Source: a virus (lineage: Duplodnaviria; Caudoviricetes). From it: a stretch of 64,000 nt of DNA. Shown here in pieces: positions 9,124-62,427 of the stretch. The stretch is taken from the IMG/VR virus record IMGVR_UViG_3300022923_000005, positions 32,001 to 96,000 of that record; one strand, 5' to 3'. Below the pieces are notes generated by a model, which saw only the letters and a list, made by a program, of their open reading frames with translations, did not search any database and was not told where the DNA came from. How positions within the stretch are numbered: the stretch's first letter is position 1; each line of letters begins with the position of its first letter. The translations under genes and the position numbers were made by a program.

Positions 9124-10233
9124 TTATGTTCCTATATCCTGTCTACCTACTCCACTACCGCCTAATACTTTTTTTGGTGATGCAGTTGTAGTTCCTTTTG
9201 TGTTTGTATTCTTAGGAAACACTGCTCCTACTACACCATTAATTGTATTTGCAACAGTCTGTTGGCCTGCTGGACTAGTTAAAATATTAATACCTTCTTG
9301 TAAGATACTGTCCTTGCTTAAACCTTTTGCATTCTTGTAAGTGTTAATTGCTGATACTGCTGTGCTTAAGAAACCTTGTGGTGAACTAAATGCACTACCA
9401 TCACCAACAGCACCAAATACTGATTCTAATCCGTCAAGTACGCCACCGCTGCCGAGTAAGTTACTTACTCCGCCACCGCCCATTTGCAATGGACCTGGTG
9501 TAGTATCATAATGTAAAGTTGCAAAGCCTTTAGGCGAACCTTCACTAACAGTACCTGCTGAATATCTCACTGCTTCATATTGCAGTTGCATTGTACTTTC
9601 TGCAGGTTCACTTCCTGCCTGATAATCAAAGTCACCGTGTTGCCAAGATGTAATTCTTGGATTAATTAATTCGTAGCCAATAAATCTTCTACGACCCATT
9701 GTGTAGATTTGCACACTCTTAAATAATGGTGTGGTAATATTATTATCTAAACCATATCTATACTGGTCCATATTAGTATCAGTAACACGATAATGATTAA
9801 AGTCAAATGCAGAGTTAGGTAAGTTTCTATCTGCAACATAGTATCCGTAATACAATGCCCAAAGTGCATTTACTACACCTTGATTATCATCGTGGAATGT
9901 AAACTGTACAGGATCATAATTAATCATCTTATAGATAATTTTCTTTCTATTATACTGATTCAAAACTTCTGTATCAAATTTAAAACTAGGTAAGTTGATA
10001 TTTTTAACTAACAATCCAACTTCTTCTGCGTGTTTAGCAGTAAAGTTAGGTGCTTTATGTGCTGAAGGATCTAATTCAACTCTTACGTAGTAGTTGTATT
10101 TGTGTTTAGGAGAAAGTCTAAAATTATCATCAATAAACAATCTAGTAGCGTGTGTATAGTTCGCTACTCTACCTTTAGGATTTGACAGTCCTGTGAACAC
10201 ATCTGTTAGAAATCTTGTAAACTTGTTGGCCAT
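9124..10233 (-). CDS. Tail-tube-fold baseplate/tube initiator (gp54/gp48-like)
   Basis: Tube-like features (PKHKYNYYV, LP.F, YDPVQFTFHDD, L.NP.I); directly after gp19. Confidence 0.6.
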   Translation of the reverse strand: MANKFTRFLTDVFTGLSNPKGRVANYTHATRLFIDDNFRLSPKHKYNYYVRVELDPSAHKAPNFTAKHAEEVGLLVKNINLPSFKFDTEVLNQYNRKKIIYKMINYDPVQFTFHDDNQGVVNALWALYYGYYVADRNLPNSAFDFNHYRVTDTNMDQYRYGLDNNITTPLFKSVQIYTMGRRRFIGYELINPRITSWQHGDFDYQAGSEPAESTMQLQYEAVRYSAGTVSEGSPKGFATLHYDTTPGPLQMGGGGVSNLLGSGGVLDGLESVFGAVGDGSAFSSPQGFLSTAVSAINTYKNAKGLSKDSILQEGINILTSPAGQQTVANTINGVVGAVFPKNTNTKGTTTASPKKVLGGSGVGRQDIGT

Positions 10234-14437: not shown

Positions 14438-14773
14438 ATGAGACCACTATGTAAGTGCGGATTAAGACCCCGTGCAGTTAACTATAAGAAGCAAGGTAAG
14501 ACATATTACAGGAGTTTGTGTGAGGCTTGCAGTAAACACGGACTGTATCACGGTGTGCCTAGATGGCAACGTGCAGGATACAAAATTAAAAAACAGTGTG
14601 ATAAATGCGGCTTTCGATCACCACACAAAGAAGTATTCAGAGTATTTCACGTAGATGAAAACCTTGATAATTGCAGACCGCAAAATCTAAAAACTGTATG
14701 TGCTAATTGTAGGAGCGTGTTATCTAAAGAAAATATACGCTGGAAACAGGGTGACTTAGTGGCTGACTACTAG
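14438..14773 (+). CDS. Small Zn-finger/HNH-like nuclease
   Basis: CxC and CxxC pairs; FHVDENLDNC..NLKTVCANC HNH-type segment; TAAATA-N5-ATG. Confidence 0.7.
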   Translation: MRPLCKCGLRPRAVNYKKQGKTYYRSLCEACSKHGLYHGVPRWQRAGYKIKKQCDKCGFRSPHKEVFRVFHVDENLDNCRPQNLKTVCANCRSVLSKENIRWKQGDLVADY

Positions 14774-26348: not shown

Positions 26349-26435
26349 ATTTTTCTCTGATCCAAACTTGTTGTATAGTATTTATCCGACTGCCAAGATA
26401 ACGTGTCTATGTAAAAAAGCACCATAAATAGTTTT

Positions 26436-27029
26436 ATGGAACATATAACAGTTGAAAATGCACTTCCTAGAGCCTATCAAGACGAAGTAGAAAGACTTAT
26501 GTATGGTATGGATTTTCCGTGGTTTGCTAATCACGAGCATTATTACAATAGCAATACATATAGTTTGGGTTTTACACATCTTGCACTAAATGACGGTCCT
26601 GATTTACCAAAAGGAACTACTGCAAGTAATCATTTACAATCACTACTTCCTATTTGGTACACAATGGGTGATGCTTTAGGACAAGAATTAGTAAAATTAC
26701 TTAGACTGCGTTGCGGTTTGCTTGTGCCAAGCAATACTAGTAAAGAGATGGTAACAAATGCTGATGCAGTTGATGGAGGCGATGAGCCACATTTAGATTT
26801 TTTATGTCCTCATTGGACAGGATTATATTATGTAAACGACAGCGATGGCGATACTGTTGTTTATGATCAAACAAAACCATCTGATCACTATACAATATTA
26901 ACAACATCAACACCTAAAAAAGGAAAGATGTTTATTTTTAACGGTAAACATTATCATTCAAGTAGTAAACCTACAGATGCATATTCAAGATGTGTACTTA
27001 CTTTTAATTTTACAACTACTGAAATGTAA
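26436..27029 (+). CDS. Fe(II)/2OG oxygenase-like protein (HxD type)
   Basis: PHLD...LYYVNDSDGDT...F.G..YHSSS.P....R motifs. Confidence 0.8.
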   Translation: MEHITVENALPRAYQDEVERLMYGMDFPWFANHEHYYNSNTYSLGFTHLALNDGPDLPKGTTASNHLQSLLPIWYTMGDALGQELVKLLRLRCGLLVPSNTSKEMVTNADAVDGGDEPHLDFLCPHWTGLYYVNDSDGDTVVYDQTKPSDHYTILTTSTPKKGKMFIFNGKHYHSSSKPTDAYSRCVLTFNFTTTEM

Positions 27030-27033
27030 AAAT

Positions 27034-27762
27034 ATGATTAATTGGCTTAAAAACAAATTTAAAAAGAAACAACCATTAGTAACCTGTTACACAACTGTAA
27101 GAGGATTAGAAGAAATCTATCCTCCTAGAGTTGCAACCGCAGCGATACCAGATTGGTTTAAGAAAATGCCTAAAGAAATAATGGAACAATGGAGCGGACA
27201 TCCTGGCACAGCAAAAAAATGTCCTGCATTTATTGATTATTATAAGTCGGGCGTTGTTTTATATTTGTGGTGCGACTTATGGGTAAAAATAAATGAAGAT
27301 ACAACGTGGGAAGTAAAGACTCCTGAAAAACTTTTTAGTTTTACAAATCATTTAGATAATCAATTTTTAGACCATTTAGATAACCGCGAATATGCAATGG
27401 TGCTTAAAGCAAATAGTCCTTGGAGAATGGTAACACCTAAAGGATATGATTTAATGCAATTGCCTTTACACTATCACTTTGATAAAAGATTTGAAGTATT
27501 GCCTGGTGTAATGAGTGCTGATATACATTATGAAGTCAACCCACAAATGGCATTTAAAGAGTATGGCGAATATATGATTCCAAGAGGTACACCATTAGCA
27601 ATGTACGTGCCAATTAAAAGAGAAAAAATGACACTTGAAGTTCGTGAGATGGACGATGAGATGAAACGTTTAGAAGAAAAACAATACTATTGGTTTTCAG
27701 GCAAGTTCAGTGGTGGATACAAAGAGCATCAAACTATCATTAAAAAGCAAGAAAAGAAATGA
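27034..27762 (+). CDS. Hypothetical beta-rich protein, paralogue of the next gene (start revised to 27034)
   Basis: IPDWFK, TAK.CP, PW...TPKG, LPG and RGTPL motifs shared with 27759..28490. Confidence 0.7.
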   Translation: MINWLKNKFKKKQPLVTCYTTVRGLEEIYPPRVATAAIPDWFKKMPKEIMEQWSGHPGTAKKCPAFIDYYKSGVVLYLWCDLWVKINEDTTWEVKTPEKLFSFTNHLDNQFLDHLDNREYAMVLKANSPWRMVTPKGYDLMQLPLHYHFDKRFEVLPGVMSADIHYEVNPQMAFKEYGEYMIPRGTPLAMYVPIKREKMTLEVREMDDEMKRLEEKQYYWFSGKFSGGYKEHQTIIKKQEKK

Positions 27763-28490
27763 ACTGGTTCAAAAAAACACAACCAACTATTGAATTCTGG
27801 TCTGTAGAAAAAGGTTTAGAACATACTGCGCCGCCGGTCCCTGCTACACAATGTATACCAGATTGGTTTAAAGAAATGCCTGCTGCTGTAAAAGATGTTT
27901 ACAACAATTTTGGTGCTAACGGCAGAGTAGAAACTGCAAAACAATGTCCAGCATACGCAGAATTTTTTAAACAAGCGTATGTGTTAAGAATGTGGACAGA
28001 CTTTAAAATTACAATTAATAAAGATCACAGTTATTATGTTGAATCCGCAGATGATAGATTTGAATTTACTAATCACGGCGAATTACAGTTCCAACAACAT
28101 TTACCTGATCCTAACAAATACAGTATGGTACTTAAAGCAATAAGTCCGTGGAGATTAAAAACTCCTAAAGGGTGGTCAGTATTGCAATTACCTATGTTGT
28201 TTCATTACGATAAAAGATTCGAAGTATTACCAGGATCATTTTGGTCTGATATACATCACGAATGCACACAGCAGATGGCATTTTTTGATTATGGAGAATA
28301 TATTATTGAAAGAGGTACACCTCTTTGTATGTTTGTTCCTGTACAAAGAAATGCAATCAAACATAAGGTGTCCGAATTTACAGACAGGCTATATAATATA
28401 ACTAATCAAAGTTATTTGTGGTGGGCAGGTAAATTTAAAAACGGATACAAAGAACACCAACGAATAGTTAAAAAGGAGAAAAGTAAATGA
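27759..28490 (+). CDS. Hypothetical beta-rich protein, paralogue of the previous gene
   Basis: Same motif series, ending W..GKF..GYKEHQ. Confidence 0.7.
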   Translation: MNWFKKTQPTIEFWSVEKGLEHTAPPVPATQCIPDWFKEMPAAVKDVYNNFGANGRVETAKQCPAYAEFFKQAYVLRMWTDFKITINKDHSYYVESADDRFEFTNHGELQFQQHLPDPNKYSMVLKAISPWRLKTPKGWSVLQLPMLFHYDKRFEVLPGSFWSDIHHECTQQMAFFDYGEYIIERGTPLCMFVPVQRNAIKHKVSEFTDRLYNITNQSYLWWAGKFKNGYKEHQRIVKKEKSK

Positions 28491-28741
28491 GTACTATTAC
28501 AGTAGAATCATTAGAACCGGGAGTAAATTACTTCTGTATTTACGAAACAGAAATTGATCCTAATACAATGCCTTTGTTATCACAATCAGATGAAACAATT
28601 CCTAAGGCTATTATTACAGGTAAAGGTCAAATTTTACAAAGAGATAAAGAGAAAAAACTTGTTGAAGTAATTGATCTTGAAACACATCAACGTTATGTTG
28701 TTGGTTGGGATAAAATTACTGAAATCGCAGTTGCTGACTAA
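28487..28741 (+). CDS. Hypothetical protein
   Basis: 84 aa, SD AAGGAG, overlapping both neighbours. Confidence 0.65.
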   Translation: MSTITVESLEPGVNYFCIYETEIDPNTMPLLSQSDETIPKAIITGKGQILQRDKEKKLVEVIDLETHQRYVVGWDKITEIAVAD

Positions 28742-29355
28742 TGAAAATTAGGTCAATATTTCCAGAAGGCATTGGCCTAGCGACTAATACTGACATTAAA
28801 CTTGATATTGATAGTTTAATGAAAAGTATAGAGTGGAAAACTGACGATAATGGCTTAGGTGAATTTGATCAAAGTCAAACAAATTTACAAGAAGTAGAAG
28901 AATGGCAGCCATTGCTAAATTGGATTGTAAAAAAGGCTGAACATTATTGGTCAGAATTAGGCTACAAGCACGATGGTATGTTAATTACACAAGCGTGGCT
29001 TAATAAAATGCCCGATGGTGGTACTATTGATTGGCATTGGCACAGCAATTCACTTATTTCAGCAGTATACTATCTTAAAGCAGATGAAGGCACAGGACCT
29101 ACATTGTTTCAAACTACTAAAAATCCACTACAACTTAGTCTACAAACAGAAGTAGACAAGTTTACTAACTACAATTGCCCTGAAATAGCAGTAAGACCGG
29201 AGCAAGATACTGTAGTATTATTTCCATCGTATATTAACCATCGCAGTGCTGCTAATTTTAATGCTAATTCTGAACGCTATACAGTAGCGGTCAATATAAT
29301 GCCCAATACGCTTGGAAAAGAAAACCACTTTAATTGGGCTAAATTGCATAAATAA
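28741..29355 (+). CDS. Putative Fe(II)/2OG oxygenase (HxH, TIGR02466-like)
   Basis: W.N...HWH.NS.ISAVYY...LFPSY..H...R..VAVN. Confidence 0.8.
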   Translation: MKIRSIFPEGIGLATNTDIKLDIDSLMKSIEWKTDDNGLGEFDQSQTNLQEVEEWQPLLNWIVKKAEHYWSELGYKHDGMLITQAWLNKMPDGGTIDWHWHSNSLISAVYYLKADEGTGPTLFQTTKNPLQLSLQTEVDKFTNYNCPEIAVRPEQDTVVLFPSYINHRSAANFNANSERYTVAVNIMPNTLGKENHFNWAKLHK

Positions 29356-29389
29356 ACATATAACAGACGTATTAAGGAGACTTGTTACT

Positions 29390-29566
29390 ATGGCAACATT
29401 TACAGTTGAAGGGAAAACTTTCGACAAGTATTACAAAGCATACGACTATGCAATGTTTTTGTACAATACTGAAAATAGACAGATCGAAATGAGTAAAGAC
29501 GGCGGAGCACCTATCTTGATCGGTGACCCAATTAACGAAGAAGAACTAGATAATCTTAATTACTAG
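29390..29566 (+). CDS. Small Tyr-rich protein (58 aa; start revised to 29390)
   Basis: SD AAGGAG and its own TAAATA at 29349-29354; MATFTVEGKTFDKYYKAYDYAMFLY... Confidence 0.65.
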   Translation: MATFTVEGKTFDKYYKAYDYAMFLYNTENRQIEMSKDGGAPILIGDPINEEELDNLNY

Positions 29567-30206
29567 TTTTACTAAGATCTAATTCAGTAAGACTGTCAAG
29601 TCTTCCAATCTTTTCAAAAATAAACGTATTAAAAGCAAGGCTCTTTCTAGGAAGGTCTTGCTTTATTTTACCTACACTATGTTGAGTTTCACTAGGAAAT
29701 AGTACTAAAGTATTTTTCCTTGGTGTAAATGAGTGGTGATCAAAAGCATATGGGGCTTCAATATCTTCATTGCGATCTACTTCAAAGTTGCTAAATTTTC
29801 TAGGACGTAAAAAACTAATAGGTTCTATATCGCCTTCGTCCCAATAAAATACGCCTGAAATTAGACTGTTAGGATGTATGTGATATTTGTGTCTTTGTCC
29901 TTTTTCCTTTATAGATACCCAACTCATAGTAAGATCTATTTTCTTAAAGTTCCAAGCAAGTACGTTTCTAGCATAGTTGTCTACGTGATGCATAATCCAA
30001 TTCCTTAAAGGAGTCATTTCATCACGGTTGAGAATGTAACTATCCTCACTTATTGTACCATATTCTTTAATTGTTTCGACATCTTTTTCTATATCAATCG
30101 GTGCATTATCCATATAATCAATGCACTGCTGTATTTCATCTTTACAAATAGCAAAGTATACAGGAATAGGAAAAATAGGTACTACTTCAATATGATCATC
30201 GTTCAT
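29556..30206 (-). CDS. Putative Fe(II)/2OG oxygenase (HxH, TIGR02466-like)
   Basis: IFP.PVY, HIHPNSLISGVFY, LFPS...H and RKSLAFN motifs. Confidence 0.8.
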   Translation of the reverse strand: MNDDHIEVVPIFPIPVYFAICKDEIQQCIDYMDNAPIDIEKDVETIKEYGTISEDSYILNRDEMTPLRNWIMHHVDNYARNVLAWNFKKIDLTMSWVSIKEKGQRHKYHIHPNSLISGVFYWDEGDIEPISFLRPRKFSNFEVDRNEDIEAPYAFDHHSFTPRKNTLVLFPSETQHSVGKIKQDLPRKSLAFNTFIFEKIGRLDSLTELDLSKTSN

Positions 30207-30787
30207 TAGTTTACCAACTTTACATTAAATGCAATACTGATTCTTTCTTCATTGCTTTTATTTTTTACAACCATATGCTCTAAATACGATGGCCATAACA
30301 ACATTCTTCCTACAACAGGCTCAAACCAAACATTAGGTTGCATATTCCTTGCTCTGTGTGTAAGTTTATGAAAGTTGTATGCACTTGCAGGAGGATTAAA
30401 AATTATATTTCCACTGTCTTTAGGAGCAGTAACATAAAATATACCACTTATGTCGCTTTCTGGATGCATATGAAACTCTTGCCACATACCTGGCTTACTA
30501 AAGTTATACCACGATTCATCTAAATTAACAATTGTGTACGGAGGATCTACTGCTAATTCTTCTAAGTATTGATGTATGTTTCTATAGATATGTTTACTTA
30601 CAAGCGGACATTGATCTTTTAGTACATTTACATATTCATCAAACTTAAATGTGCTTTGTATATCGCTTGACCAAGGATTAGTTGTGTGCTGTCTTTGTGT
30701 TTCTGCAACTTGTACTGCCTCGTCAATAATACTTTGATTATCAGTATCAACTAATTTAACAGGAATACCAAAATAATTTTCTATCAT
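30206..30787 (-). CDS. Putative Fe(II)/2OG oxygenase (HxH, TIGR02466-like)
   Basis: SWYN, HMHPES.ISGIFY, LWPSYLEH and RISIAFN motifs. Confidence 0.82.
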   Translation of the reverse strand: MIENYFGIPVKLVDTDNQSIIDEAVQVAETQRQHTTNPWSSDIQSTFKFDEYVNVLKDQCPLVSKHIYRNIHQYLEELAVDPPYTIVNLDESWYNFSKPGMWQEFHMHPESDISGIFYVTAPKDSGNIIFNPPASAYNFHKLTHRARNMQPNVWFEPVVGRMLLWPSYLEHMVVKNKSNEERISIAFNVKLVN

Positions 30788-31380
30788 TGCATATTTCCTA
30801 TTACATCGAAATTAATAATTGCTCTAGATGACTCGTTAGGGCTAGAACTTGAATGATAGTATTTGCCATTAAAAAATAATGCTCTACCTTTTTTAGGTTG
30901 GCAAGTTACTAAAGGCTCCCATTGTACATTTTCCATATTCGCAGACTGCGTGTCGTGCCGTGTCTGCTTGTATAATGTAGTTGGTGCTTCATTATCAACA
31001 ACATAATATAAACAAACTAAATGATCAAACTGTAAATCTATGTGTGGATGATTGCTAGGAACATCTTTACTAATAGGTAATTGTAAAAAACTACGTGCTT
31101 GATATACGTGTTCAACATCAATATTAATTTTGTCACAAGCAATATACACTAGCGGCTTAATAAACGGCCACCAAGCATCGCCGTTGTCGTTGTTGTCTTC
31201 ATAAAATACGTGATTAAACGCAGGACAAATTGCTCTTGTGTTGTATCTTTTAATTTTGTCAGCAGTAAGTGTTACGTCAGCAACATAGTACCAAGGAAAA
31301 CTATTGTTACCTAAAAGTAAATCTTCAATATCGTCTTGATATACTTTTGGTATTACATTATCTACAATTTGATATTCCAT
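30784..31380 (-). CDS. Fe(II)/2OG oxygenase-like protein (HxD type), paralogue of 26436..27029
   Basis: FPWY, PHID, LYYV and PKKG...F.G.YYHSSS.P...R motifs. Confidence 0.8.
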   Translation of the reverse strand: MEYQIVDNVIPKVYQDDIEDLLLGNNSFPWYYVADVTLTADKIKRYNTRAICPAFNHVFYEDNNDNGDAWWPFIKPLVYIACDKINIDVEHVYQARSFLQLPISKDVPSNHPHIDLQFDHLVCLYYVVDNEAPTTLYKQTRHDTQSANMENVQWEPLVTCQPKKGRALFFNGKYYHSSSSPNESSRAIINFDVIGNMQ

Positions 31381-32537
31381 TAGAAATAATTATATCCCAT
31401 CTTTTTATCAACTAATGACCAAAGTTCCATACTCAATGGTTTGAAAATAATTCTTGGATCATCAACACCGTTTGTTTTTAATACTTGCATCATACTTTTT
31501 ACATTCTGAAACACATCACTATTATGCAGTGCTTTTGTTGTTTTGTCAACTGTTATTTTCCAGAACTCGCTATCAAATGTACTTCCGCCGTGATATACAA
31601 AGTAAATAAATGCGCAATATACTTCAGCAGTATGACGCAATGAAGCATTTGCTGCATCTGCTGTAGTATCGCCCATAATTACATTTGCAGCCTCAATTGC
31701 TACTGCTTCATAATACGAACCACTTAATGCTTCTAATGGTTCAAAAAATAACGCTCTATTACCATTACTAATAATTCTGCCGTCTATAGTATTTTTCTTA
31801 TAGTAGTTTTTCCAACTAAATTCTCTTACTTGTATAGGATCATCAAACAGTGTTTGCATATCTTCTTTTGCTTCTTCGACGCTAGTAATTGTGTCATTAA
31901 ATAGATATCCCCAGCCTTGTCTTGTTTCTAAAGGTATACCAAACATCCAACCATTTCTAGTTGCTTGATGATATGTGTAATTCCAATTACCTGGTTTGTC
32001 GATGCCATTTACTATAGCGTGGTTAACAGGAAGATCATCTTTTAATTCATAATCAGAATAATCATCTGGATATCCCATACAGTCAATAATATAATCAAAC
32101 TTATGTTCAGTACTATCAATAAGTAAATTTACGTGTGTATCTGTTTGTTTAATAGATTTAATTGCACCGTGTATTTCAAAGAAACCTTTTTTGTTTCTCA
32201 ATCTTCCTAATACTAGTTCACTTAATTTAAAGTTGTTAAAGTGTATAGCGTGATAAGGAGGTATAAACTGATTATGAAAATCGTTGTCTCTCCAGTTTTT
32301 ATATTTTACACCGTGTTTAGTTGTAGCGTCTAAGGTAGGACCGTCATCTAACATTCTAAAATCACAAGCCTGTGCTAATATGTGAGGTAGAAATGTTGTT
32401 GTACTTTCTCCAATACCTAGAATTTTTTGTTCAGGATCGTGTATGCTGTATACTTCAATGTCATCATCTAGTGTGTTCATAAAGTATGCTAGTGTTTGAA
32501 GTCCGGCAGTGCCGATACCTATAACTGCAACTTTCAT
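31380..32537 (-). CDS. Tryptophan-halogenase-family flavoprotein (short form)
   Basis: GIGTAG, GIGEST, ATTKHG, IDCMG, GWMFGIP and FFEPLEA motifs. Confidence 0.8.
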   Translation of the reverse strand: MKVAVIGIGTAGLQTLAYFMNTLDDDIEVYSIHDPEQKILGIGESTTTFLPHILAQACDFRMLDDGPTLDATTKHGVKYKNWRDNDFHNQFIPPYHAIHFNNFKLSELVLGRLRNKKGFFEIHGAIKSIKQTDTHVNLLIDSTEHKFDYIIDCMGYPDDYSDYELKDDLPVNHAIVNGIDKPGNWNYTYHQATRNGWMFGIPLETRQGWGYLFNDTITSVEEAKEDMQTLFDDPIQVREFSWKNYYKKNTIDGRIISNGNRALFFEPLEALSGSYYEAVAIEAANVIMGDTTADAANASLRHTAEVYCAFIYFVYHGGSTFDSEFWKITVDKTTKALHNSDVFQNVKSMMQVLKTNGVDDPRIIFKPLSMELWSLVDKKMGYNYF

Positions 32538-32538
32538 A

Positions 32539-33210
32539 TTATCCTCCGCCTAGGCTAGTGTCCTTCATTCCATCTGTTAAGACTTTTGCTTCACCTAAAG
32601 TAGGAACAAATTTTGTTGCTAATGAAAATCTAAAGAATTGACCGTGTTCAGAAGCAAGTTGTGTTGGAGGTCGAATCATATGCGGAATCTGCGGATGAAA
32701 TAAAACTAAACGACCGGGTCTATATGAACATACGTGTTCAAAGTCAGTACCTTCTTCATTTAAGAAGCAAGTATCTCCGCCCCATTCAATGTTCCATTGC
32801 AAGTTTGCATAATAAACCATTGTCCATCCATTAGAGTCGTTGTCAATATGCATATGAAATCTATCGTGTGGAGTACATAAGTTAATCATAGTGTTATGAT
32901 GAAACTTGTAATACATATTGTGTCGTTCTATAACTTCTTTAGGTAGATTTTCTAACAATTGTGTATGTTTGAAATCATCTACTTGCCAGGTCGATACAAC
33001 TGAAATATGTTGTGTGTTTTCTAAAACACCGTTATCTGTACCATTTAATTTGTACAACGACTTGCTGCACATTTCGTAAATACCTGTCCTTACTGAATAC
33101 GGCAAAATGTCATCGTAAACAAAAATTTTCCTATCAGGAAAATTAGACATAGAATATTCTTTTACTTTATATTCGAAGTTTTTTCTATCCATTTTTCTAT
33201 TTTTATACAC
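32539..33210 (-). CDS. Prolyl-hydroxylase-like Fe(II)/2OG oxygenase (start uncertain: 33210, 33192 or 33150)
   Basis: HID, YYAN..W...WGGDT.F, PGR.V.F...IPH and R.SLA.K motifs. Confidence 0.8.
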   Translation of the reverse strand: MYKNRKMDRKNFEYKVKEYSMSNFPDRKIFVYDDILPYSVRTGIYEMCSKSLYKLNGTDNGVLENTQHISVVSTWQVDDFKHTQLLENLPKEVIERHNMYYKFHHNTMINLCTPHDRFHMHIDNDSNGWTMVYYANLQWNIEWGGDTCFLNEEGTDFEHVCSYRPGRLVLFHPQIPHMIRPPTQLASEHGQFFRFSLATKFVPTLGEAKVLTDGMKDTSLGGG

Positions 33211-34664
33211 CTTCTATATATGTGATCGTATGGCTCTATAGTCTCTTTATAGTAATTATCGATCAATTGGTGCTTATCACCAACAGATATGGCTTTACTA
33301 TTACATAGATCCATTCCTTGTATCACTGTTAGCCAACTTTCAAAACTAAATCCGCTTAGATATTTTGAAAAATCCATTTTTCCTGTGGCAAAATATCTTT
33401 CAAAGTCTGAAAGTCTTTCCTGTAGTGTATCTGGTACGTTATTTGGATTAGATTGTTCTTTCCAAAATGCAGATTCGTTTCCTTTACCTCTATAATGTAA
33501 AGATAAAAAGTCACGTATTCCTAAATATTGTTTATATACACTACTGTTAAATTGATCTTCATTCAACTCGTTGTACATTGTTGGATTCCAAGTCTCTAAC
33601 AAAGTTAATAATTGATCAACAATAATTCCTGTACCGTTTGCTTCTAATGGTTCCATAAACCCTGTGCTTAAACCTATGCCAATTACATTTTTTAATTGAC
33701 TTTGTAACATTATACTTGGTGTAAATTGTAAACTTGCTACTGGTTCAATATGTTCTCCGAACTTACTTCTAATTTCATCTAGTGCTTGATCTTTTGTAAG
33801 GTGGTTAGGATCATACAAATATCCTTGTCCTGTTCTTTCTTTTAAACCTATTTGCCAAGTCCAACCTGCGTCCATAGTAGTTGCAAGTGTTGCTGTACTG
33901 TAGCAAGGTTCGTCCCACCAAGGTAAAACTGCACAAGCAGGAAAATATTGTGATTGATCTACTGATGTTGCTTTCATTTCTTTTTCAAGAAGCAATCTTG
34001 CAAATCCACTACAATCAAAAAACCAAGTTGCTGGCAATGTAATATCATTTTCTAATTGAATACTTTTAATTTTTCCTAAGTCATCTTTTGTGCTAGAAAT
34101 ATATGTACCTTCAACTAGTTTTATATTACGTTCCAAACCTTTTGCTTTTAAATATGCAGCATTTGCTCTACTGTCAAAGTGCCACATAGGAAAAATTTTA
34201 TCTACAATAGCACCATAGTCATCAAATGGTACTTTATCATTTTTAAGTAATGCGCCAGTTGGAACTATATCTGCAATATCTATACCCGTACCTATTAACA
34301 TACGTAAGAAATAATACCGCTCTTCTAAACTAGAAAAACGTTTGCTCCATTTTGCAAAATAATGATCTGTAATTAAACTGTGCCAAAACACAGACTCTTT
34401 TCCGTTCCAGCCAACAAACTTTCCTCCTAGTTTAGGAGTCGCTCCTACTGCTTTAGCCCATTCGTTAAAAGGAATACCTACTGTATCGTATAATCGAGAA
34501 AGCGCAAAGCCTCCTGATTCACCTGCAATAATAGGCGGTTTTTTTGGATCTTCTACTACTGAAATATCTATACTAGGCCAATAGTGTTTTACAAATAGTG
34601 CTGTAAGCCAACCTGCTGTGCCGCCGCCTAGTATTACTGCTTTAACACTATTCTTTTCCGTCAT
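33162..34664 (-). CDS. Tryptophan-halogenase-family flavoprotein
   Basis: GGGTAGW, GES, ATPKLG, HFD, DCSGF, GWTWQI and FMEPLEA motifs. Confidence 0.85.
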   Translation of the reverse strand: MTEKNSVKAVILGGGTAGWLTALFVKHYWPSIDISVVEDPKKPPIIAGESGGFALSRLYDTVGIPFNEWAKAVGATPKLGGKFVGWNGKESVFWHSLITDHYFAKWSKRFSSLEERYYFLRMLIGTGIDIADIVPTGALLKNDKVPFDDYGAIVDKIFPMWHFDSRANAAYLKAKGLERNIKLVEGTYISSTKDDLGKIKSIQLENDITLPATWFFDCSGFARLLLEKEMKATSVDQSQYFPACAVLPWWDEPCYSTATLATTMDAGWTWQIGLKERTGQGYLYDPNHLTKDQALDEIRSKFGEHIEPVASLQFTPSIMLQSQLKNVIGIGLSTGFMEPLEANGTGIIVDQLLTLLETWNPTMYNELNEDQFNSSVYKQYLGIRDFLSLHYRGKGNESAFWKEQSNPNNVPDTLQERLSDFERYFATGKMDFSKYLSGFSFESWLTVIQGMDLCNSKAISVGDKHQLIDNYYKETIEPYDHIYRRCIKIEKWIEKTSNIK

Positions 34665-36237
34665 AGAACTTACCTTTCAAATATTGATAATGCGTTGGTA
34701 ATGTTTTACATAATTCTAAAACGTCTTGTTTATGTTTTTGATGTCTATCCATTGCTGCTTTCCAAATACTTGGCAAGCCTGGATATCTAAATGCTTCCAT
34801 ATCTGCGTGTGCTTTACTAATAGGATTGTATCCCATACCTGCTAGGATAAAATATTTTCCGTCATTAGTATCTCCGTCTAGATGTAGACGTGTGTTCATT
34901 CTGTAGTTGTAATCTTGTACACAATTATCCCACGCTTCGGCAGGATCAGGAATGTAATTTACAGTATCAGTTACGTGCCTCCAATAAGGAGTATCTCTAC
35001 GAGCACTTAAACCATAGTGCATACTTACAAATTGTTTAAAGTTATCAAGTTCAAACCTTGCTGCTGAATTCCATCCTTCAACATCCATATTGTTTACAAG
35101 TCCGTTTCTACGTGTAAGTGTTCCTACTAAGCGTATAATGTTTTCGTGCGTTGTAAGCAGTCCTGTGCTTTCTAATGGCTCAACAAAACCTAATGCTAAT
35201 CCTATAGCACATACATTTCCTTTCCAAGGAGTGTCTTGTACACCGTGTCTAATATTAATTCTGTTAAATTCTAATTTTTCTATTTGTTCTGGTTTTAATC
35301 TTTTGCTTAGATAGTTTTTAAATTCTACTTCTGCTTGATCCCAATCAACAAATTTGCTACTGTGTACATATCCTGTACCACGTCTATGATATAAAGGAAT
35401 ATCCCATACCCAACCGTTTTCAATAGCAGTACAATCTGTAAAACTGTGCATTTCATTTTCTTTATCGTTGTAAGGAATACGAGTTGCCATTGCACGATCA
35501 TTCATTAATACATCACCAAAACTTACAAATTTAGTTTTCATTATTTTTTCAATTAATAATTTTGTAAATCCAGTACAGTCAATATACAAATCTGCAAAGT
35601 GAGATTGTTCTTCTCCTATTAGTTCAATAATATTTCCATTTTCATCTTGTTTTACATCTTTAACTGTATCCCAGAAATGTTTTGTACCATTAGGAAGAGC
35701 GATATTATTTTTTAAATATTGACCAAATTTTTCTGCATCCATATGGTATGCTGTATTAAGGTGGAAATCAAATCCTCTAATTTGTTGTTTTTCATCTGCG
35801 TTGTCATACAATTTATTTTGATCAGTCATAATAGTTTGATTCAACGCCCAACCTGCAAACTCACTATGATCATATTCATTTTCAGTATATGCTTGATGCC
35901 AAAAGTAATCCATTATTCCGTTTGATGTATGATCAAAAGGCATTGTTCCAAAAGGATATTGAAAACTAGTTCCGTCTTTTTCTTTAAAATCTGTGAATCT
36001 AATACTAGTCTTGTAAGTTGCATTACACTCTGCCATCCAGTCACTGTCTTTTAATTCAAGCATATCTAAATATTTGTTAATATGCCCTAGTGTAGATTCT
36101 CCTACGCCTACAGTTGAAACTTTAGGTGATTCAACTAAACTAAGTTCTATATTTTTTAATTTTTTTGAAAGCATTGCTGCTGTCATCCAGCCTGCACTAC
36201 CTCCTCCAACAATACAAATCTTTTTAATTTGCGGCAT
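34648..36237 (-). CDS. Tryptophan-halogenase-family flavoprotein
   Basis: GGGSAGW, VGVGEST, ATYKTSI.F, AYH.DA, IDCTGF, GWVWDIP and FVEPLESTG motifs. Confidence 0.9.
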   Translation of the reverse strand: MPQIKKICIVGGGSAGWMTAAMLSKKLKNIELSLVESPKVSTVGVGESTLGHINKYLDMLELKDSDWMAECNATYKTSIRFTDFKEKDGTSFQYPFGTMPFDHTSNGIMDYFWHQAYTENEYDHSEFAGWALNQTIMTDQNKLYDNADEKQQIRGFDFHLNTAYHMDAEKFGQYLKNNIALPNGTKHFWDTVKDVKQDENGNIIELIGEEQSHFADLYIDCTGFTKLLIEKIMKTKFVSFGDVLMNDRAMATRIPYNDKENEMHSFTDCTAIENGWVWDIPLYHRRGTGYVHSSKFVDWDQAEVEFKNYLSKRLKPEQIEKLEFNRINIRHGVQDTPWKGNVCAIGLALGFVEPLESTGLLTTHENIIRLVGTLTRRNGLVNNMDVEGWNSAARFELDNFKQFVSMHYGLSARRDTPYWRHVTDTVNYIPDPAEAWDNCVQDYNYRMNTRLHLDGDTNDGKYFILAGMGYNPISKAHADMEAFRYPGLPSIWKAAMDRHQKHKQDVLELCKTLPTHYQYLKGKFYDGKE

Positions 36238-37681
36238 AGTGTGTGTCCTTAATGTAGTTAATTGCTTCTTTGTGTCCTAGTACTGGTGCTTCTCTAGTGT
36301 AGTACACATCTAGTTTTATGTCTGCTTCTGTTTTTGTATCATAAGGCAGTTTATTCCATTGGTCTAAATATGATTGTCTATCAATCAATTCTAATCCTGT
36401 TAAAACCATTGTCCAATTAAAGTTATTGAATAGTGCATACGGGTTAGCAAAGTCAGTCCATAATGGAATTTTCTTTTTGTATAATTCAATTGTTGCTTCA
36501 TTAAAATCTGTCTTTTTAATGTTATGACTGTTTTTCCAAAACTCAGAATCTTTTCTTTTAGTAAAGTAATGTAATTGTACAAAGTCAACAGTGTTTTCAA
36601 AAACTTTTGCAAACTTTTTATTGTAACTATCTTGTACACTATCACTATTTGGGTCGTAAAGTCCTATATGATTAACAAAGGCTAGTGCTTGTTGTATTGC
36701 TGTTCCAATGTTAGTGGCTTCTAAAGGCTCAATAAAACTTGCACTAAGTCCTACTGCTAAACAATTTTTGTTCCATACATTACGAAGATATCCAGCACCA
36801 AACTTAAATTTTTTACGTATGTCTAGTTCGTGTCCGTAGTATTTTGTTACTTCTTCTATTGCTTGATCTTCAGTAATAAAATCGTCACAGTATACATATC
36901 CATTACCGTATCTTTCTTGTGTAGGTATTTGCCATACCCATCCAGAACTTAATGCTGTAGCAGCAGTGTAAGCAGGAAACTTATCATCTAATTTAGTTGG
37001 GAAAGTAACAGCACTGTTCATTGGCAAATATTCTCTGCAATCTTTCCAATCACTTCCTACTTTACTGTGTATTACTTTTGCAAAACCTGTTGCATCTATA
37101 TAAAAATCACTTTCGTAAATACCTTTTTCACCGTGTAATTTTTTTACACTACCAAGTGCTTCAACAGACGTAATTGTATCAACAATAATATCAATCCTAC
37201 GTTTTGCGCAAACATCATTTAAAAATTCATTTAGTTTAAATGTATCGAAATGATATTGATTTGTACTTTCTAATACAGGTTGATAATGTTGTGAATTAAT
37301 AATAAATTCATCAAACATACTCATTTGATTTTCATTTTCAACAATTAGTTTGTGTAGTACATTAGGATGTCCAATTCTACTTTCTTCAATAATGTATGTA
37401 GGAACATTGTGCAAATAATCTTTGCCGTCACCGTTCCAGTTCTTAAAATATATTCCGTGTTTAAATGTGCTACCACAATGTAAAAAAAATTCTGCAGGAT
37501 TAATTTTTACAAATTCTAAAAAATCTCTCCAATGCTCAGTAGTACCTTCTCCTACTCCGACAATATCTATAGTGTCAGAGCGTATAAGTTGTATTTTCAT
37601 ATCAGGATATGCAGCACGTAAAATAAGTCCAGTTGTTAAACCTGCTGTACCGCCACCTACAATTGTTACACTATCAATCAT
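36224..37681 (-). CDS. Tryptophan-halogenase-family flavoprotein
   Basis: GGGTAG, VGVGEGT, TFKHGI.F, YHFD, IDATGF, GWVWQIP and FIEPLEAT motifs. Confidence 0.9.
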   Translation of the reverse strand: MIDSVTIVGGGTAGLTTGLILRAAYPDMKIQLIRSDTIDIVGVGEGTTEHWRDFLEFVKINPAEFFLHCGSTFKHGIYFKNWNGDGKDYLHNVPTYIIEESRIGHPNVLHKLIVENENQMSMFDEFIINSQHYQPVLESTNQYHFDTFKLNEFLNDVCAKRRIDIIVDTITSVEALGSVKKLHGEKGIYESDFYIDATGFAKVIHSKVGSDWKDCREYLPMNSAVTFPTKLDDKFPAYTAATALSSGWVWQIPTQERYGNGYVYCDDFITEDQAIEEVTKYYGHELDIRKKFKFGAGYLRNVWNKNCLAVGLSASFIEPLEATNIGTAIQQALAFVNHIGLYDPNSDSVQDSYNKKFAKVFENTVDFVQLHYFTKRKDSEFWKNSHNIKKTDFNEATIELYKKKIPLWTDFANPYALFNNFNWTMVLTGLELIDRQSYLDQWNKLPYDTKTEADIKLDVYYTREAPVLGHKEAINYIKDTHYAAN

Positions 37682-38273
37682 TTACTTCCTCTTGGTCTAC
37701 ATTAAAGTTAATACTAATTCTCACTTCATCTGAATTATTTACTTCAGTATAGTGTTTAATGTGTGCAGGAAAGAGTATTAAATCTTCTTCACTAACATAT
37801 AATGTATGTCGCATATCATTTATTTTTCCTGCTTCAGAGTACGGATAATAATGTTGAGCATATTCGTTAGGATTAACAAATACAATATTACCTGCATCGC
37901 TATCATATTTTAAATAGTAACATCCTGCTAGTACGTGTGTACTGTGAGAATGTTCTAAAGTATAATCACCTTTATTATGTATGTTTGCCCACATAGATGC
38001 AATCTTAGGACGACAGCCTGGACTAAACCCTGCATTGTTCCAGTAATGTAAAAGGTGCTTGTATATTTCTGTTACTAGCGGTAAAAACAATTCTTCATTT
38101 TGTAAATCTCTATTTACAGAATGTGTGCTTTTGCCACCTGCTTCTAATGCGTGATTAGAATCTTTTACAGAATCAAATAAAGTCAATAAAAAGTCAAGTA
38201 TTTTGGACTTTTCATTTTCTTCTAATTTTACTTCTGTTTTATAGGTACGAACAGGGAACATATCTAATAGCAT
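37674..38273 (-). CDS. Putative Fe(II)/2OG oxygenase (HxH, TIGR02466-like)
   Basis: MWAN, HSH...AGCYY, LFPAHIKH and RISINFN motifs. Confidence 0.82.
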   Translation of the reverse strand: MLLDMFPVRTYKTEVKLEENEKSKILDFLLTLFDSVKDSNHALEAGGKSTHSVNRDLQNEELFLPLVTEIYKHLLHYWNNAGFSPGCRPKIASMWANIHNKGDYTLEHSHSTHVLAGCYYLKYDSDAGNIVFVNPNEYAQHYYPYSEAGKINDMRHTLYVSEEDLILFPAHIKHYTEVNNSDEVRISINFNVDQEEVND

Positions 38274-38317
38274 ATTATTACTTATTTAGATACAGTTCCC
38301 TGTACTTTATTAGTGAT

Positions 38318-38779
38318 TTAGTCTGAAATCTTTTTACCGATTGTTTTAACTAAATTTGGTACTTCTCTATTAACAGTATCTGTCCAAGCAGGTGATTCTT
38401 CTGTACCCCAATTAATAGTAACACGAGAAGCTCTCATTTCACGTGCTTCTTCACTATTTGGTCCTGGTACAGTATTTTTCACTGCTGCAATGTGATCTTG
38501 CCAATTTGTTGTTCCATTTTGCATATCTTTAAACAACATATCAAGTTGCTCACCGATATCACCGTATGCGTTTCTTCTTAAAACACTGTATGATGGTGGT
38601 GCTTGAACATTTTGTTCCCACACACCGTTATGTAAAATCCAAGTATCATTAATATCATCAGATGCACAAGTTGTCCATCTTACTTTTGCGTCCGGACCTT
38701 CGTAAACTTCGAATTCTTCGCCCGGCTCGCAGATATGTTGAATACCACCTTGGAAATCTACTAATACACTTTTAGCCAT
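38318..38779 (-). CDS. Fibre-associated protein (possible chaperone/adaptor)
   Basis: R..AY..I.EQLDML..D....W..HI..VK motif, as seen next to marine phage fibre genes; follows the Gly-rich trio. Confidence 0.55.
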   Translation of the reverse strand: MAKSVLVDFQGGIQHICEPGEEFEVYEGPDAKVRWTTCASDDINDTWILHNGVWEQNVQAPPSYSVLRRNAYGDIGEQLDMLFKDMQNGTTNWQDHIAAVKNTVPGPNSEEAREMRASRVTINWGTEESPAWTDTVNREVPNLVKTIGKKISD

Positions 38780-38791: not shown

Positions 38792-39709
38792 CTATTTGTA
38801 GTTCCATACTATGCAGATGCCTCTTCGGCCCGTTCCGCCACGTCTTCTACCACGTGGTGCACCAACTCCACCACTACCTGGTGATGCTTGGCCTTCACGT
38901 TGTGATGGTTGTGGGCCACTATCGTGAACACCAATACTAGAACCACCAAAATATGAACTGCCTCCTAAACCTCCTCCGTGGTGTGTATGTCCGCGTCCTC
39001 CGCCTCCATACTGGTTTAGGTTTCCACCGGATCCAACTCCGGGACGTCCACCTGAGTGTCCGCCAACACGTCTTGCTCCTTCGCCACCACTTGCTGATAG
39101 ATAAGGACCAAAACTACTTGAACCACCGTTACCCGCTGAGTTGTGATAGTTTACACCACCACCTCCACCGTTAAGTGTAACGGAAACTGATGAAATACCT
39201 GTTACGTCAATTACTTCTTCTGCGTAACCGCCAGCACCTCCGGATTCACCGTGGCCTGTTCCACCGCCACCTGCTCCGCAGATCTGTACTCTAATTCTTT
39301 GTACGCCGGCCGGTCTGTTCCAAGTAGAATTACTTGTATAATAGTTAACACTTACTAAGTCTCCATAAGTGTAATCATAACCGTTTCCTGCGTCATTAAT
39401 TTTTAAAACTTGGTTAGCAGCACCTAAACTAGATTTACCTGTACCACCACCTGATGGTGCTAGTGAACCTGTAACTGCTGCTCCTGTTAAATCAACACTA
39501 CCTGCTGCAAATTTTGCTGCTGATAATCCGTTTGCTGGATCAATCTTAGCACCTGTTACTGCTCCGTCTGCAATGTTATCTGTGTCAATTGAAGAATCAA
39601 TAATTTTGTTTCTGTTAATTTGTCCTGAGCCAATGTCTGCTGCACCAATAGTACCGTCAACAATACCAGCACCTGTAATTTTCTTTAGTCCTTCGTAACT
39701 TATTGCCAT
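38792..39709 (-). CDS. Glycine-rich fibre/adhesin-like protein (paralogue 3)
   Basis: I.DG..T..K repeats, then W..P.GV..IRVQ..G.GGGG and a polyglycine domain. Confidence 0.75.
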   Translation of the reverse strand: MAISYEGLKKITGAGIVDGTIGAADIGSGQINRNKIIDSSIDTDNIADGAVTGAKIDPANGLSAAKFAAGSVDLTGAAVTGSLAPSGGGTGKSSLGAANQVLKINDAGNGYDYTYGDLVSVNYYTSNSTWNRPAGVQRIRVQICGAGGGGTGHGESGGAGGYAEEVIDVTGISSVSVTLNGGGGGVNYHNSAGNGGSSSFGPYLSASGGEGARRVGGHSGGRPGVGSGGNLNQYGGGGRGHTHHGGGLGGSSYFGGSSIGVHDSGPQPSQREGQASPGSGGVGAPRGRRRGGTGRRGICIVWNYK

Positions 39710-39710
39710 A

Positions 39711-40625
39711 CTATCTGTACTCCCAAACCACTACCATTCCAGAACGTCCTGTACCACCTCTTCTTCTACCTCGAGGAGCACCTGTTCCGCCTGTTCCTTG
39801 TGATGCTTGTCCTTCACGTTGTGATACTTGAGGACCACTGTCGTGAACTCCAATACTTGATCCACCAAAATAACCATTACCGCCAGCGCCGCCACCGTGG
39901 TGTGTATGACCTGCACCGCCTCCACCGTAAATGTTTAAATTACCTCCTGAACCAATACCTGGGCGTCCACCTGAGTGTCCACCTACTCGTCTAGCACCTT
40001 CTCCGCCTGACGCACTTAAATATGGTCCAAATGATGTTGTTCCGCCATTACCAGCACTGTTATGGTAGTTTACACCACCTCCACCACCGCCAATGGAAAT
40101 ACTTACTGAACTAATACTTGATACATTTAGATATTCTTCTGCATATCCACCTGATCCGCCTGCTTCTCCGTGACCTGTTCCGCCACCTCCGCCGCCGATT
40201 ACTTGTACTCTAATTCTTGTTACACCTGATGGTTTACTCCAAGTTGTGTTACTTGTGTAAACTCTACAAGCACTTAAACCTGTTTCGCCTGTAGTTGGAT
40301 TACCACTACCGTCTGTTTTAATATTTCTTCTAGCAGATCCGCCGCTGTATGCTAAACCAGTACCACCTTTTGATCCTGAAAGAGCTCCGCCTACTTTACT
40401 TCCTGCTAAGTCAATACTATTATTACCTAATTTACTTGCTGTAATTGCACCGTCTGCAACATCACCTGTTGGAATACTTGCGTTTGCAAGTTTGGCTTCT
40501 GTAATTGCTCCAGTATCAAATTTTGGAGTATCAATTGTTGTTCCTGCAACGTCATTTGCAACAATAGTTGTATCAACTAGGCCTTCGCCTGTAATTTTTT
40601 GTAATCCTTCGTAACTAAATGCCAT
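39711..40625 (-). CDS. Glycine-rich fibre/adhesin-like protein (paralogue 2; start revised to 40625)
   Basis: MAFSYEGLQKIT aligns with the N-termini of both neighbours; same domain layout. Confidence 0.75.
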   Translation of the reverse strand: MAFSYEGLQKITGEGLVDTTIVANDVAGTTIDTPKFDTGAITEAKLANASIPTGDVADGAITASKLGNNSIDLAGSKVGGALSGSKGGTGLAYSGGSARRNIKTDGSGNPTTGETGLSACRVYTSNTTWSKPSGVTRIRVQVIGGGGGGTGHGEAGGSGGYAEEYLNVSSISSVSISIGGGGGGVNYHNSAGNGGTTSFGPYLSASGGEGARRVGGHSGGRPGIGSGGNLNIYGGGGAGHTHHGGGAGGNGYFGGSSIGVHDSGPQVSQREGQASQGTGGTGAPRGRRRGGTGRSGMVVVWEYR

Positions 40626-41536
40626 TATCTTAAACTCCAAACAACTACCATACCGGATTTTCCACTTGCACCTCTTCTACGTGCTTGTGGTGCGCCAACA
40701 CCACCACTTCCGGGTGCTGCTTGACCTTCACGCTGTGATGGTTGCGGTCCACTATCGTGAACTCCAATGTTTCCTCCACCGAAATAACTAGTACCTCCGT
40801 GTCCTCCACCGTGGTGCGTATGGCCTGCGCCACCGCCTCCGTACATATTAATATTACCACTTGATCCAATGCCTGGTCGTCCGCCTGTGTGTCCACCAAC
40901 ACGTCTTGCACCTTCGCCACCACTTGCTGATAAGTAAGGACCAAAACTTGATGTTCCTCCATTACCTGCTTGGTTGTGATAGTTAACGCCGCCGCCTTGT
41001 CCGCCAATTGTTACACTAACTGAACTTACGCCTGTTACATCAATGATTTCTTCTGAGTAACCACCTGCGCCACCTGCTTCTCCGTGACCTGAACCACCTG
41101 CACCTCCACCAACTACTTGTACTCTTACTCTAGTACAGCCTGTTGGTTTACTCCAAGTACTGTTTCCTGTGTACACATTACACTGAATAAGTCCACTAAA
41201 TCCCCATTCAAGTGCATTACCTGAATTGTTTACCATTAAAGTTCTATCAGCAGTTGTCGAAGTTAATGCCGTACCACCGTTGGCAACAGGTAATGTACCG
41301 GTCGGTATGCTGCCTGATAAACTAACTGCACCGTCTGCGATAGCAGTTTCAGTAATACTAGTATCACCTATTTTATCAGCAGTAATGTTTGCTGCATTAA
41401 TTTTATCACCTGTAATATCTCCTGCTGCTACTGATGCTGCGTTAACTGCACCTCCAGCAAAATCATCACCTGTTAATGATGCATCAACAATACCTTCATT
41501 TGTAATCTTCTTAACACTGTTATAATTAAATGGCAT
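40625..41536 (-). CDS. Glycine-rich fibre/adhesin-like protein (paralogue 1)
   Basis: Same layout as the two downstream genes; SD AGGAG. Confidence 0.75.
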   Translation of the reverse strand: MPFNYNSVKKITNEGIVDASLTGDDFAGGAVNAASVAAGDITGDKINAANITADKIGDTSITETAIADGAVSLSGSIPTGTLPVANGGTALTSTTADRTLMVNNSGNALEWGFSGLIQCNVYTGNSTWSKPTGCTRVRVQVVGGGAGGSGHGEAGGAGGYSEEIIDVTGVSSVSVTIGGQGGGVNYHNQAGNGGTSSFGPYLSASGGEGARRVGGHTGGRPGIGSSGNINMYGGGGAGHTHHGGGHGGTSYFGGGNIGVHDSGPQPSQREGQAAPGSGGVGAPQARRRGASGKSGMVVVWSLR

Positions 41537-41907: not shown

Positions 41908-42228
41908 TTATACTGTTGCTGTTTCAATGCCGTATGCTACTGCACTGACGTTAATTGTGTCAGAACGTACAACTAAAACTTTGTTAGCGTCCATTACAAT
42001 ACCTGTACGCTCAATAACTGAATTACCAACTAACTCTGAATCAAATTCAATAAATTCATCATTTGCTGGTGTTGCACTTGCGGACACCGCCACTCTAATT
42101 TTTGCCGAACTAGCATTCCTATTACATACAGACAGTGTAATTACACTAAAAGTATCTGCTGGAACAGTGTACAGAGTAGTATCTGTAGCCGCTGCTAGAT
42201 CTGCTGTTCCTAATCTTCCTGTTGCCAT
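41908..42228 (-). CDS. Small beta-sandwich virion protein
   Basis: LYTVP....V..SVCN...IE.D......ER.GIV; similar to 55758..56090 and 59870..60247. Confidence 0.65.
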   Translation of the reverse strand: MATGRLGTADLAAATDTTLYTVPADTFSVITLSVCNRNASSAKIRVAVSASATPANDEFIEFDSELVGNSVIERTGIVMDANKVLVVRSDTINVSAVAYGIETATV

Positions 42229-42250
42229 TTTACATTTTCTCCATTATGTT

Positions 42251-62154: not shown

Positions 62155-62427
62155 TTATCTTTTAGATAATAAAGCCATAAGCTCTACTTTACTAATAGCA
62201 GTAAGTATGCGATTAATATGGTCTAATTCTTCTTGTGCTTTTTCTAGATAAGTTGTGCGTTTTGTTTGCTTATATTTTATAATATGCTCCATATGTTCCT
62301 TCATATGCTTTTCTAACATTTTATCAAATGTTTTAACATCGTGAGCAAACATAGGAAAACGTTTCCGCCACTTTTGTAATTGATCTCTAAGTTTAGGAAA
62401 ATCTCTGTAACTTGTAATCTTTTCCAT
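62155..62427 (-). CDS. Hypothetical helical protein (start revised to 62427)
   Basis: TAAATA-N5-ATG at 62427. Confidence 0.6.
   Translation of the reverse strand: MEKITSYRDFPKLRDQLQKWRKRFPMFAHDVKTFDKMLEKHMKEHMEHIIKYKQTKRTTYLEKAQEELDHINRILTAISKVELMALLSKR

Follow-up and report, generated by a model that had tools for sequence, protein, structure and literature searches.

The 64-kb stretch of DNA analyzed here (the window) comprises bases 32001–96000 of a 132.6-kb viral contig from IMG/VR (IMGVR_UViG_3300022923_000005; CheckV completeness 38%), and it carries, within its baseplate/fibre region, an island of predicted halogenases, 2-oxoglutarate (2OG)/Fe(II) oxygenases and dUTPase-fold proteins. 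Sequence comparison shows the island to be a larger version of the Syn9-type cassette, a kind of cluster that is already known: In 2010, the corresponding array of cyanophage Syn9 was described as combining dioxygenases with two halogenases and one dUTPase-fold protein in which a cysteine is conserved (Iyer, Abhiman, de Souza, Aravind; PMC2938197). The prior art given in an earlier reading of the window, made from the sequence alone (the sequence-only reading), was limited to individual halogenases and multiple 2OG oxygenases; this understates what was known, as the whole array had been described already. In papers on cyanophage genomes (including PMC3037559), prnA and multiple 2OG oxygenases appear as accessory genes with no assigned role, and the question of what the phage halogenases and many 2OG oxygenases act on dates from the Syn9 genome of 2007. 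What is new, as predicted here, is the presence of the cassette in a lineage of jumbo myoviruses, together with three further halogenase subfamilies. Based on gene context, we tentatively consider the most likely function of the island to be the tailoring of virion appendages, that is, modification of the fibres, with a confidence that stays a little below even.

Linkage of the cassette to fibre-tip genes

The island and the cluster of Syn9 and Syn10 have in common 2OG dioxygenases from several families, encoded in tandem, Trp-type halogenases (one of the VirX1 type among them), and a dUTPase-fold protein that keeps a conserved Cys; both are found behind Gly-rich genes annotated as "tail fiber assembly" and a gp40-like gene, in a colinear order. 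The window is colinear with Syn9 gp34–gp54 and S-RIM44 gp170–gp157 through the fibre, Gly-rich, gp40-like, halogenase, dUTPase-fold, and oxygenase genes. There are also clear differences: The Syn9/Syn10 cluster has two halogenases, whereas the island has four, three of which fall outside the gp41 and gp42 clades; the island has two dUTPase-fold paralogues, located in a separate convergent operon; and it lacks the JmjC/MINA-type member (Syn9 gp49) and the TPR-fused member. No match to JmjC_2 was found on the contig and no tblastn match to gp49, a member that is also missing from some cyanophage loci. Finally, the carrier does not belong to the Kyanoviridae but is a jumbo phage with Vibrio phage 2.275.O as a relative. 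The window is thus one more example of the cassette, and a rich one, with four halogenase subfamilies.

The codistribution of the enzymes with fibre genes was followed in 80 IMG/VR loci, fetched with a profile of the gp40-like protein (32–90% identity), and in 50,697 cultured phage records. All 80 loci show the same order, with one to three Gly-rich genes, a gp40-like gene, one or two VirX1-type halogenases, a dUTPase-fold gene, and oxygenases, the last of which vary in copy number among loci; in 51 of 52 distinct loci, the reading frames of halogenase and dUTPase-fold protein either overlap or adjoin each other. Among the cultured phages, full-length gp40-like genes are encoded by about ten cyanophage species, all of them halogenase-bearing, and the gene is always directly upstream of the halogenase; homologues of the Gly-rich subfamily occur in the same halogenase-bearing phages only. 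Co-occurrence of island genes with specific fibre genes, which the sequence-only reading had suggested as a check, was therefore positive in both data sets. Other arrangements pairing fibre-type genes with these enzymes were seen in loci L032, L041, L083, and L085.

The sequences further indicate that the fibre and enzyme genes travelled together. The window encodes a T4-like structural module (terminase, a 1119-amino acid [aa] sheath, tube, baseplate connector, giant fibres, and capsid protein), and the capsid protein shares 71% identity with its counterpart in Vibrio phage 2.275.O (349 kb) and about 68% with those of Serratia phage BF, Yersinia phage fHe-Yen9-04, and Erwinia jumbo phages. 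Because the capsid is nearest to these jumbo phages, the carrier is predicted to be an uncultured jumbo myovirus with a genome of roughly 350 kb. Identity to cyanophage-type contigs is 40–52% for the fibre and tip proteins and 45–52% for the fibre-plus-enzyme block, above the 31–34% identity of the capsid protein to cyanomyoviruses; for the giant fibres the values are 51% over 1985 aa and 40% over 1176 aa. Since the fibre module is nearer to the cyanophage contigs than the capsid is, and since the cultured relatives of the jumbo carrier lack all of the fibre-block and enzyme genes, we infer that a block of fibre and enzyme genes of at least 25 kb was exchanged as one piece between cyanomyovirus-type phages and the jumbo lineage. 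Within this lineage, the set of four halogenases, including those with odd motifs, is kept at 52–61% identity. A megablast search of the island against cultured phages gave no match. With a fibre module resembling that of cyanomyoviruses (40–52%) and a capsid resembling that of the Vibrio jumbo phage, the host may be a picocyanobacterium, or the phages may have a receptor type in common.

Composition and conservation of the enzymes

The sequence-only reading had described two convergent operons amid fibre genes, with four Trp-halogenase genes and seven oxygenase-like genes, and gene calls, Pfam searches, motif checks, and orthologues agree with it: The minus-strand run encodes four PF04820 halogenases and five oxygenase-like proteins, and the plus-strand run two oxygenase-like proteins, two phrog_7084 paralogues, and two small open reading frames (ORFs) of 84 and 58 aa (table 1). 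The four halogenases score between 90.6 and 358 bits against PF04820 (cut-off 21 bits) and all keep the GxGxxG motif, the (A/S)TxK lysine at the position of PrnA K79, and FxEPLE; the GxGxxG motif, the Lys, and the Glu of FxEPLE are also present in the halogenase orthologues of related loci L090 and L093. The 529- and 485-aa proteins have a perfect WxWxIP motif, which reads WMFGIP in the 385-aa and WTWQIG in the 500-aa member. Orthologues at 52–56% identity (L093) have the same two variants, which are therefore maintained and do not reflect decay.

The 529-aa protein is orthologous over its full length to the cyanophage Syn10 halogenase VirX1: It matches VirX1 (PDB 6QGM) over residues 2–527 (E = 1e-137) and branches with Syn9 gp42 inside a gp42/VirX1 clade of 15 rows with support values of 100/100. 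The two proteins are alike in Lys, Glu, and WxWxIP, at an identity of about 43–45%. VirX1 is a trimeric enzyme that prefers iodide and has a large, open, accessible active site (PMC8407142). The 385-, 500-, and 485-aa halogenases each pair only with their counterparts on a sister contig, outside the gp41 and gp42 groups, with the 385-aa protein on a very long branch. Compared with the bacterial enzymes PrnA, RebH, PyrH, and Thal, the island halogenases have the Pfam family and catalytic motifs in common, but lack the context of a biosynthetic cluster, and in the 385-aa member some 90 internal residues are missing, as is the C-terminal region that covers the substrate. No match to the Flavin_Reduct family was found on the 132.6-kb contig, which is 38% of the genome, and we assume that reduced flavin for the predicted halogenases comes from a host reductase.

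Five of the seven oxygenase-like proteins pass a Pfam cut-off: four that of PF13759 (204, 216, 193, and 199 aa) and one that of PF13640 (223 aa). The other two stay below the Pfam cut-offs (24.4 bits, against 27 for PF13640, for the 197-aa protein; 16.5 bits for the 198-aa protein), and both match phrog_274 (E = 1e-30 or better) as well as Syn9 gp51/gp53. An alignment of all seven, at low identity, shows two invariant His and one invariant Arg; at the second position following the first His, three proteins have Asp, two Asn, one Glu, and one Thr. Three of the four PF13759 members (204, 216, and 199 aa) have Asn or Thr at this place instead of Asp or Glu, and in these a further His precedes it by two places (HxH). 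The iron ligands of the PF13759 members may accordingly deviate from the classical triad, as far as an alignment of such low identity can indicate. It should be noted that phrog_274 (Syn9 gp51/gp53) and phrog_1644 (gp46/gp52) are publicly named "DNA endonuclease V" and "minor coat protein," which look like propagated mis-annotations, as their members give matches to 2OG oxygenase models and were classed with the dioxygenases by Iyer et al. Two further PF13640 genes are located on the contig away from the island (contig positions 2280–2519 and 109564–109812, outside the window).

Both phrog_7084 proteins are predicted to have a dUTPase-like fold. An AlphaFold2 model of paralogue b (pLDDT 94) shows the barrel of dUTPases and dCTP deaminases; its best structural match is 3h6x (Z 10.8, root-mean-square deviation 3.1 over 119 residues), a Foldseek comparison reached E = 1e-4, and the top 22 solved matches all belong to the dUTPase/dCTP-deaminase superfamily. 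The beta-barrel is common to the island protein and the trimeric dUTPases and dCTP deaminases, at identities of 6–19%, whereas the island protein adds an insertion and a C-terminal helical hairpin, and the Cys, Trp, and His conserved in its family are not dUTPase motifs as judged from the alignment. A profile match of the paralogues to dUTPases is weak (40 residues, E = 0.047). The sequence-only reading had called the pair paralogous unknowns and had seen no nucleotide-modification gene: They are indeed paralogues (48% mutual identity, with Cys63 invariant), yet a dUTPase-like barrel means that they are no longer unknowns, and the absence of a nucleotide-type gene holds at the level of sequence and not at that of fold. 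The family is large and mostly viral (1773 clusters). Pfam DUF6065 (PF19541), carried by 12–21% of the members of the nearest Atlas clusters, does not match the paralogues at E = 10 or E = 0.1, and a literature search for DUF6065 found no paper. A predicted complex of the VirX1-type halogenase with paralogue b scored 0.00 and 0.00, which says nothing either way. Tandem arrays of up to four phrog_7084 copies were seen in L073 and L075. In two further loci (L017:9998–10705 and L038:9968–10753) a homologue lies between genes for DNA polymerase, helicase, and UvsX, and one of the two adjoins a cupin carrying the annotation "cysteine dioxygenase"; uses of the family are thus not confined to fibre regions.

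Expression and function of the island

A late-type promoter had been proposed for each operon in the sequence-only reading. TAAATA boxes are present at both; the T4-type late promoter, with TATAAATA at about −10, has a single exact copy in the window, at the terminase gene, and none at the island, which has CATAAATA and TCTAAATA. TAAATA is found exactly 11 nucleotides before the ATG of seven genes, including those of the terminase, the tail tube, and the first plus-strand island gene, and nine boxes occur in the interval from −17 to −10, compared with 0.24 expected. Between the box at −11 and the ATG, a Shine–Dalgarno sequence is usually absent (17 nucleotides upstream of the seven genes); should TAAATA serve as the −10 element of a late promoter, these late mRNAs would have little or no leader. 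The gap between the gene for the 153-aa protein and the start of the minus-strand run measures 44 nucleotides and has no predicted terminator, so that this run would be the last part of a fibre operon of about 32 kb, read in the same direction. Late expression of the island is thus plausible from these sequence features. The cluster genes are not mentioned in PMC7238727.

Under the favoured explanation, a cassette of halogenases, 2OG/Fe(II) dioxygenases, and a dUTPase-fold protein would have become fused to a fibre-tip module, made up of the giant fibres, small adaptor genes, Gly/His-rich PF21722 proteins, and the gp40-like 153-aa protein. The island genes would be expressed late along with the fibre genes, and their products would use host FADH2, 2OG, Fe(II), O2, and halide to hydroxylate and halogenate side chains of the Gly/His-rich tips or giant fibres, either ahead of fibre assembly or in the course of it. 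The narrower claim, that the phage's own Gly/His-rich receptor-binding tip proteins are hydroxylated and iodinated, brominated, or chlorinated by the island enzymes, is possible, though less likely than not. In the Gly-rich proteins W128, Y186, Y201, and four His are kept in at least 85% of 148 homologues. A conserved C-terminal Trp was rejected as a halogenation site, as it is found in this lineage only and not in the cyanophage homologues. The virion tailoring put forward in the sequence-only reading, with a virion protein as its putative substrate, gains partial support from the co-occurrence with fibre genes, the late-type boxes, and the common direction of transcription. Neither the enzymes nor the fibre and tip proteins appear among the published virion proteins of S-SZBM1 and S-CREM1, so these proteomes are uninformative.

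Several points weigh against fibre modification. To our knowledge, the substrates of flavin-dependent halogenases are small molecules, carrier-bound substrates, and peptides, and not folded proteins; the nearest precedent for a ribosomally made substrate would be the peptide-acting flavin halogenases MibH and SrpI, whose substrates are short peptides encoded by dedicated precursor genes. In the tip proteins, the conservation of aromatic and His residues may have structural reasons only. The count of 80 loci overstates the number of independent events, because many of them are related cyanomyoviruses. Halogenase and oxygenase relatives are also encoded away from fibres, between terminase genes in pelagiphage HTVC008M and next to SbcC in S-B64; homologues of the dUTPase-fold proteins elsewhere are placed in replication modules (L017 and L038), and in others beside glycosyltransferases. 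Precursor-making genes could lie elsewhere, the contig being 38% of the genome. Moreover, VirX1 halogenates a broad range of small aromatics in vitro, and its natural substrate is unknown (PMC8407142).

This breadth of activity on small molecules would also suit a pathway in which the halogenases and dioxygenases act successively, late in infection, on a free amino acid or host metabolite to give a halogenated, hydroxylated compound, the adjacency to fibres reflecting block inheritance only. Halogenated, hydroxylated metabolites derived from amino acids were indeed proposed as the product of the Syn9 cluster, and bacterial clusters of halogenase, JmjC, and TonB receptor genes were likewise read as metabolite pathways (PMC2938197); the characterized PDB relatives are all Trp or small-molecule halogenases, and dUTPase-fold and 2OG relatives occur outside fibre regions as well. 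We regard such a pathway as a serious rival to fibre modification but as the less likely of the two: Synthetase, carrier protein, export, and precursor genes were not found on the 132.6-kb contig, the cluster was never seen apart from the Gly-rich and gp40-like genes in the 80 loci, and expression from late-type boxes would leave little time for a metabolite to benefit the phage. The contig has no match to the AMP-binding and Condensation (peptide synthetase) families, which, with the missing flavin reductase, extends to its full length the absence of nonribosomal peptide synthetase and flavin reductase genes that the sequence-only reading had noted for the window.

The genes could also be unrelated accessories gathered at a hyperplastic spot behind the fibres, with separate roles such as 2OG/nitrogen sensing or DNA repair, which have been suggested in the case of cyanophages. 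Sullivan et al. 2010 (PMC3037559) and later genome papers treat them as scattered accessories, and both the additional PF13640 genes elsewhere on the contig and the differing number of oxygenase copies among loci would fit; the fixed order of halogenase and dUTPase-fold gene with overlapping or abutting frames, the retention within the lineage of four halogenases with their odd motifs, and the passage of the block between phage families as a unit make this improbable. Even less can be said for a chemistry of nucleotides or DNA, in which the dUTPase-fold proteins would bind a nucleotide and the halogenases or oxygenases modify the base. The fold itself, the weak profile match to dUTPases, and the homologues beside DNA polymerase, UvsX, and helicase genes point in this direction, whereas the late-type boxes, the location among virion genes, and conserved residues that differ from dUTPase motifs as far as the alignment shows point away from it; as we also know of no such DNA modification in Syn9-type phages, we consider it highly improbable.

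The strict linkage to Gly/His-rich tip proteins and the joint movement of fibre and enzyme genes between lineages provide a short list of candidate substrates. If fibre modification is correct, enzymatic halogenation would be seen for the first time on a virion protein, and the natural substrate of VirX1-type viral halogenases would be identified; marine phages would then tune adsorption by covalent chemistry of their fibres, and iodinating and brominating enzymes in the sea would have a biological role in a virion chemistry of a new kind. If it is wrong, the production of a small molecule gains weight.

Features of the island and neighbouring genes

The coordinates of the island, of the genes to its right, and of the boxes are summarized in table 1. 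On its left, the island is flanked by genes for a 364-aa fibre-like protein, a 1381-aa protein, and a baseplate–fibre connector; on its right are the genes for the 153-aa protein, three PF21722 Gly-rich paralogues, two small proteins, and fibres of 2516 and 1845 aa.

Table 1. Positions in the window of the island genes, TAAATA boxes, and right-hand neighbours
Feature	Position	Strand	Evidence or remark
TAAATA late-type box	26425..26430	+	11 nucleotides before ATG of first plus-strand gene
197-aa oxygenase-like protein	26436..27029	+	phrog_274, E 5e-32; tblastn match to Syn9 gp51/gp53
dUTPase-fold paralogue a (predicted)	26977..27762, likely start 27034	+	phrog_7084, E 1.5e-47; 48% identity to paralogue b
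dUTPase-fold paralogue b (predicted), 243 aa, invariant Cys63	27759..28490	+	phrog_7084; AlphaFold2 model
84-aa ORF	28487..28741	+	Conserved in related contigs L010, L011, L090
204-aa 2OG-Fe(II) oxygenase	28741..29355	+	PF13759, phrog_81
58-aa Tyr-rich ORF at convergent junction	29390..29566	+	Conserved in L010, L011, L090 only
216-aa 2OG-Fe(II) oxygenase	29556..30206	-	PF13759
193-aa 2OG-Fe(II) oxygenase	30206..30787	-	PF13759, 87 bits; PDB 3bvc, E 1e-13
198-aa oxygenase-like protein	30784..31380	-	phrog_274, E 1e-30; Pfam matches sub-threshold only
385-aa minimal halogenase, WMFGIP	31380..32537	-	PF04820, 90.6 bits
223-aa 2OG-Fe(II) oxygenase	32539..33210	-	PF13640, 30.3 bits
500-aa halogenase, WTWQIG	33162..34664	-	PF04820, E 2e-75
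529-aa halogenase, VirX1 orthologue	34648..36237	-	PF04820, E 9e-107; PDB 6qgm, E 1e-137
485-aa halogenase, WVWQIP	36224..37681	-	PF04820, E 3e-93
199-aa 2OG-Fe(II) oxygenase, first minus-strand island gene	37674..38273	-	PF13759
TAAATA box	38283..38288	-	15 nucleotides before ATG at 38273
153-aa protein, Syn9 gp40 type	38318..38779	-	phrog_1787; possible fibre-assembly helper
Three Gly/His-rich paralogues, candidate fibre tips and candidate substrates	38792..41536	-	PF21722, phrog_863
113-aa and 106-aa small genes, giant fibres of 2516 and 1845 aa	41552..55369	-	Common to cyanophage-type contigs
Genes with TAAATA at −11	2136-4337, 4349-5938, 7175-7756, 9124-10233, 14438-14773, 26436-27029, 62155-62427

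The 153-aa protein is the counterpart of Syn9 gp40 (BFVD match to gp40, E = 8e-13). Its AlphaFold2 model (pLDDT 83) shows a small beta domain and a helical hairpin, with a weak resemblance to models of tail-fibre-assembly proteins; the possibility that it is the missing flavin reductase was rejected, as it has no Pfam match and no PDB match reaching Z 5. Pfam and PHROG searches with the 84-aa ORF gave no match, and its identification with Syn9 gp44 was rejected for want of similarity (E = 0.38). Between the genes for the 2516-aa fibre and the 113-aa protein lies the 106-aa gene (41908–42228, minus strand); a plus-strand frame over it (41927–42259) was rejected as a shadow ORF, and the gene itself is found in 22 related loci at about 51–59% identity.

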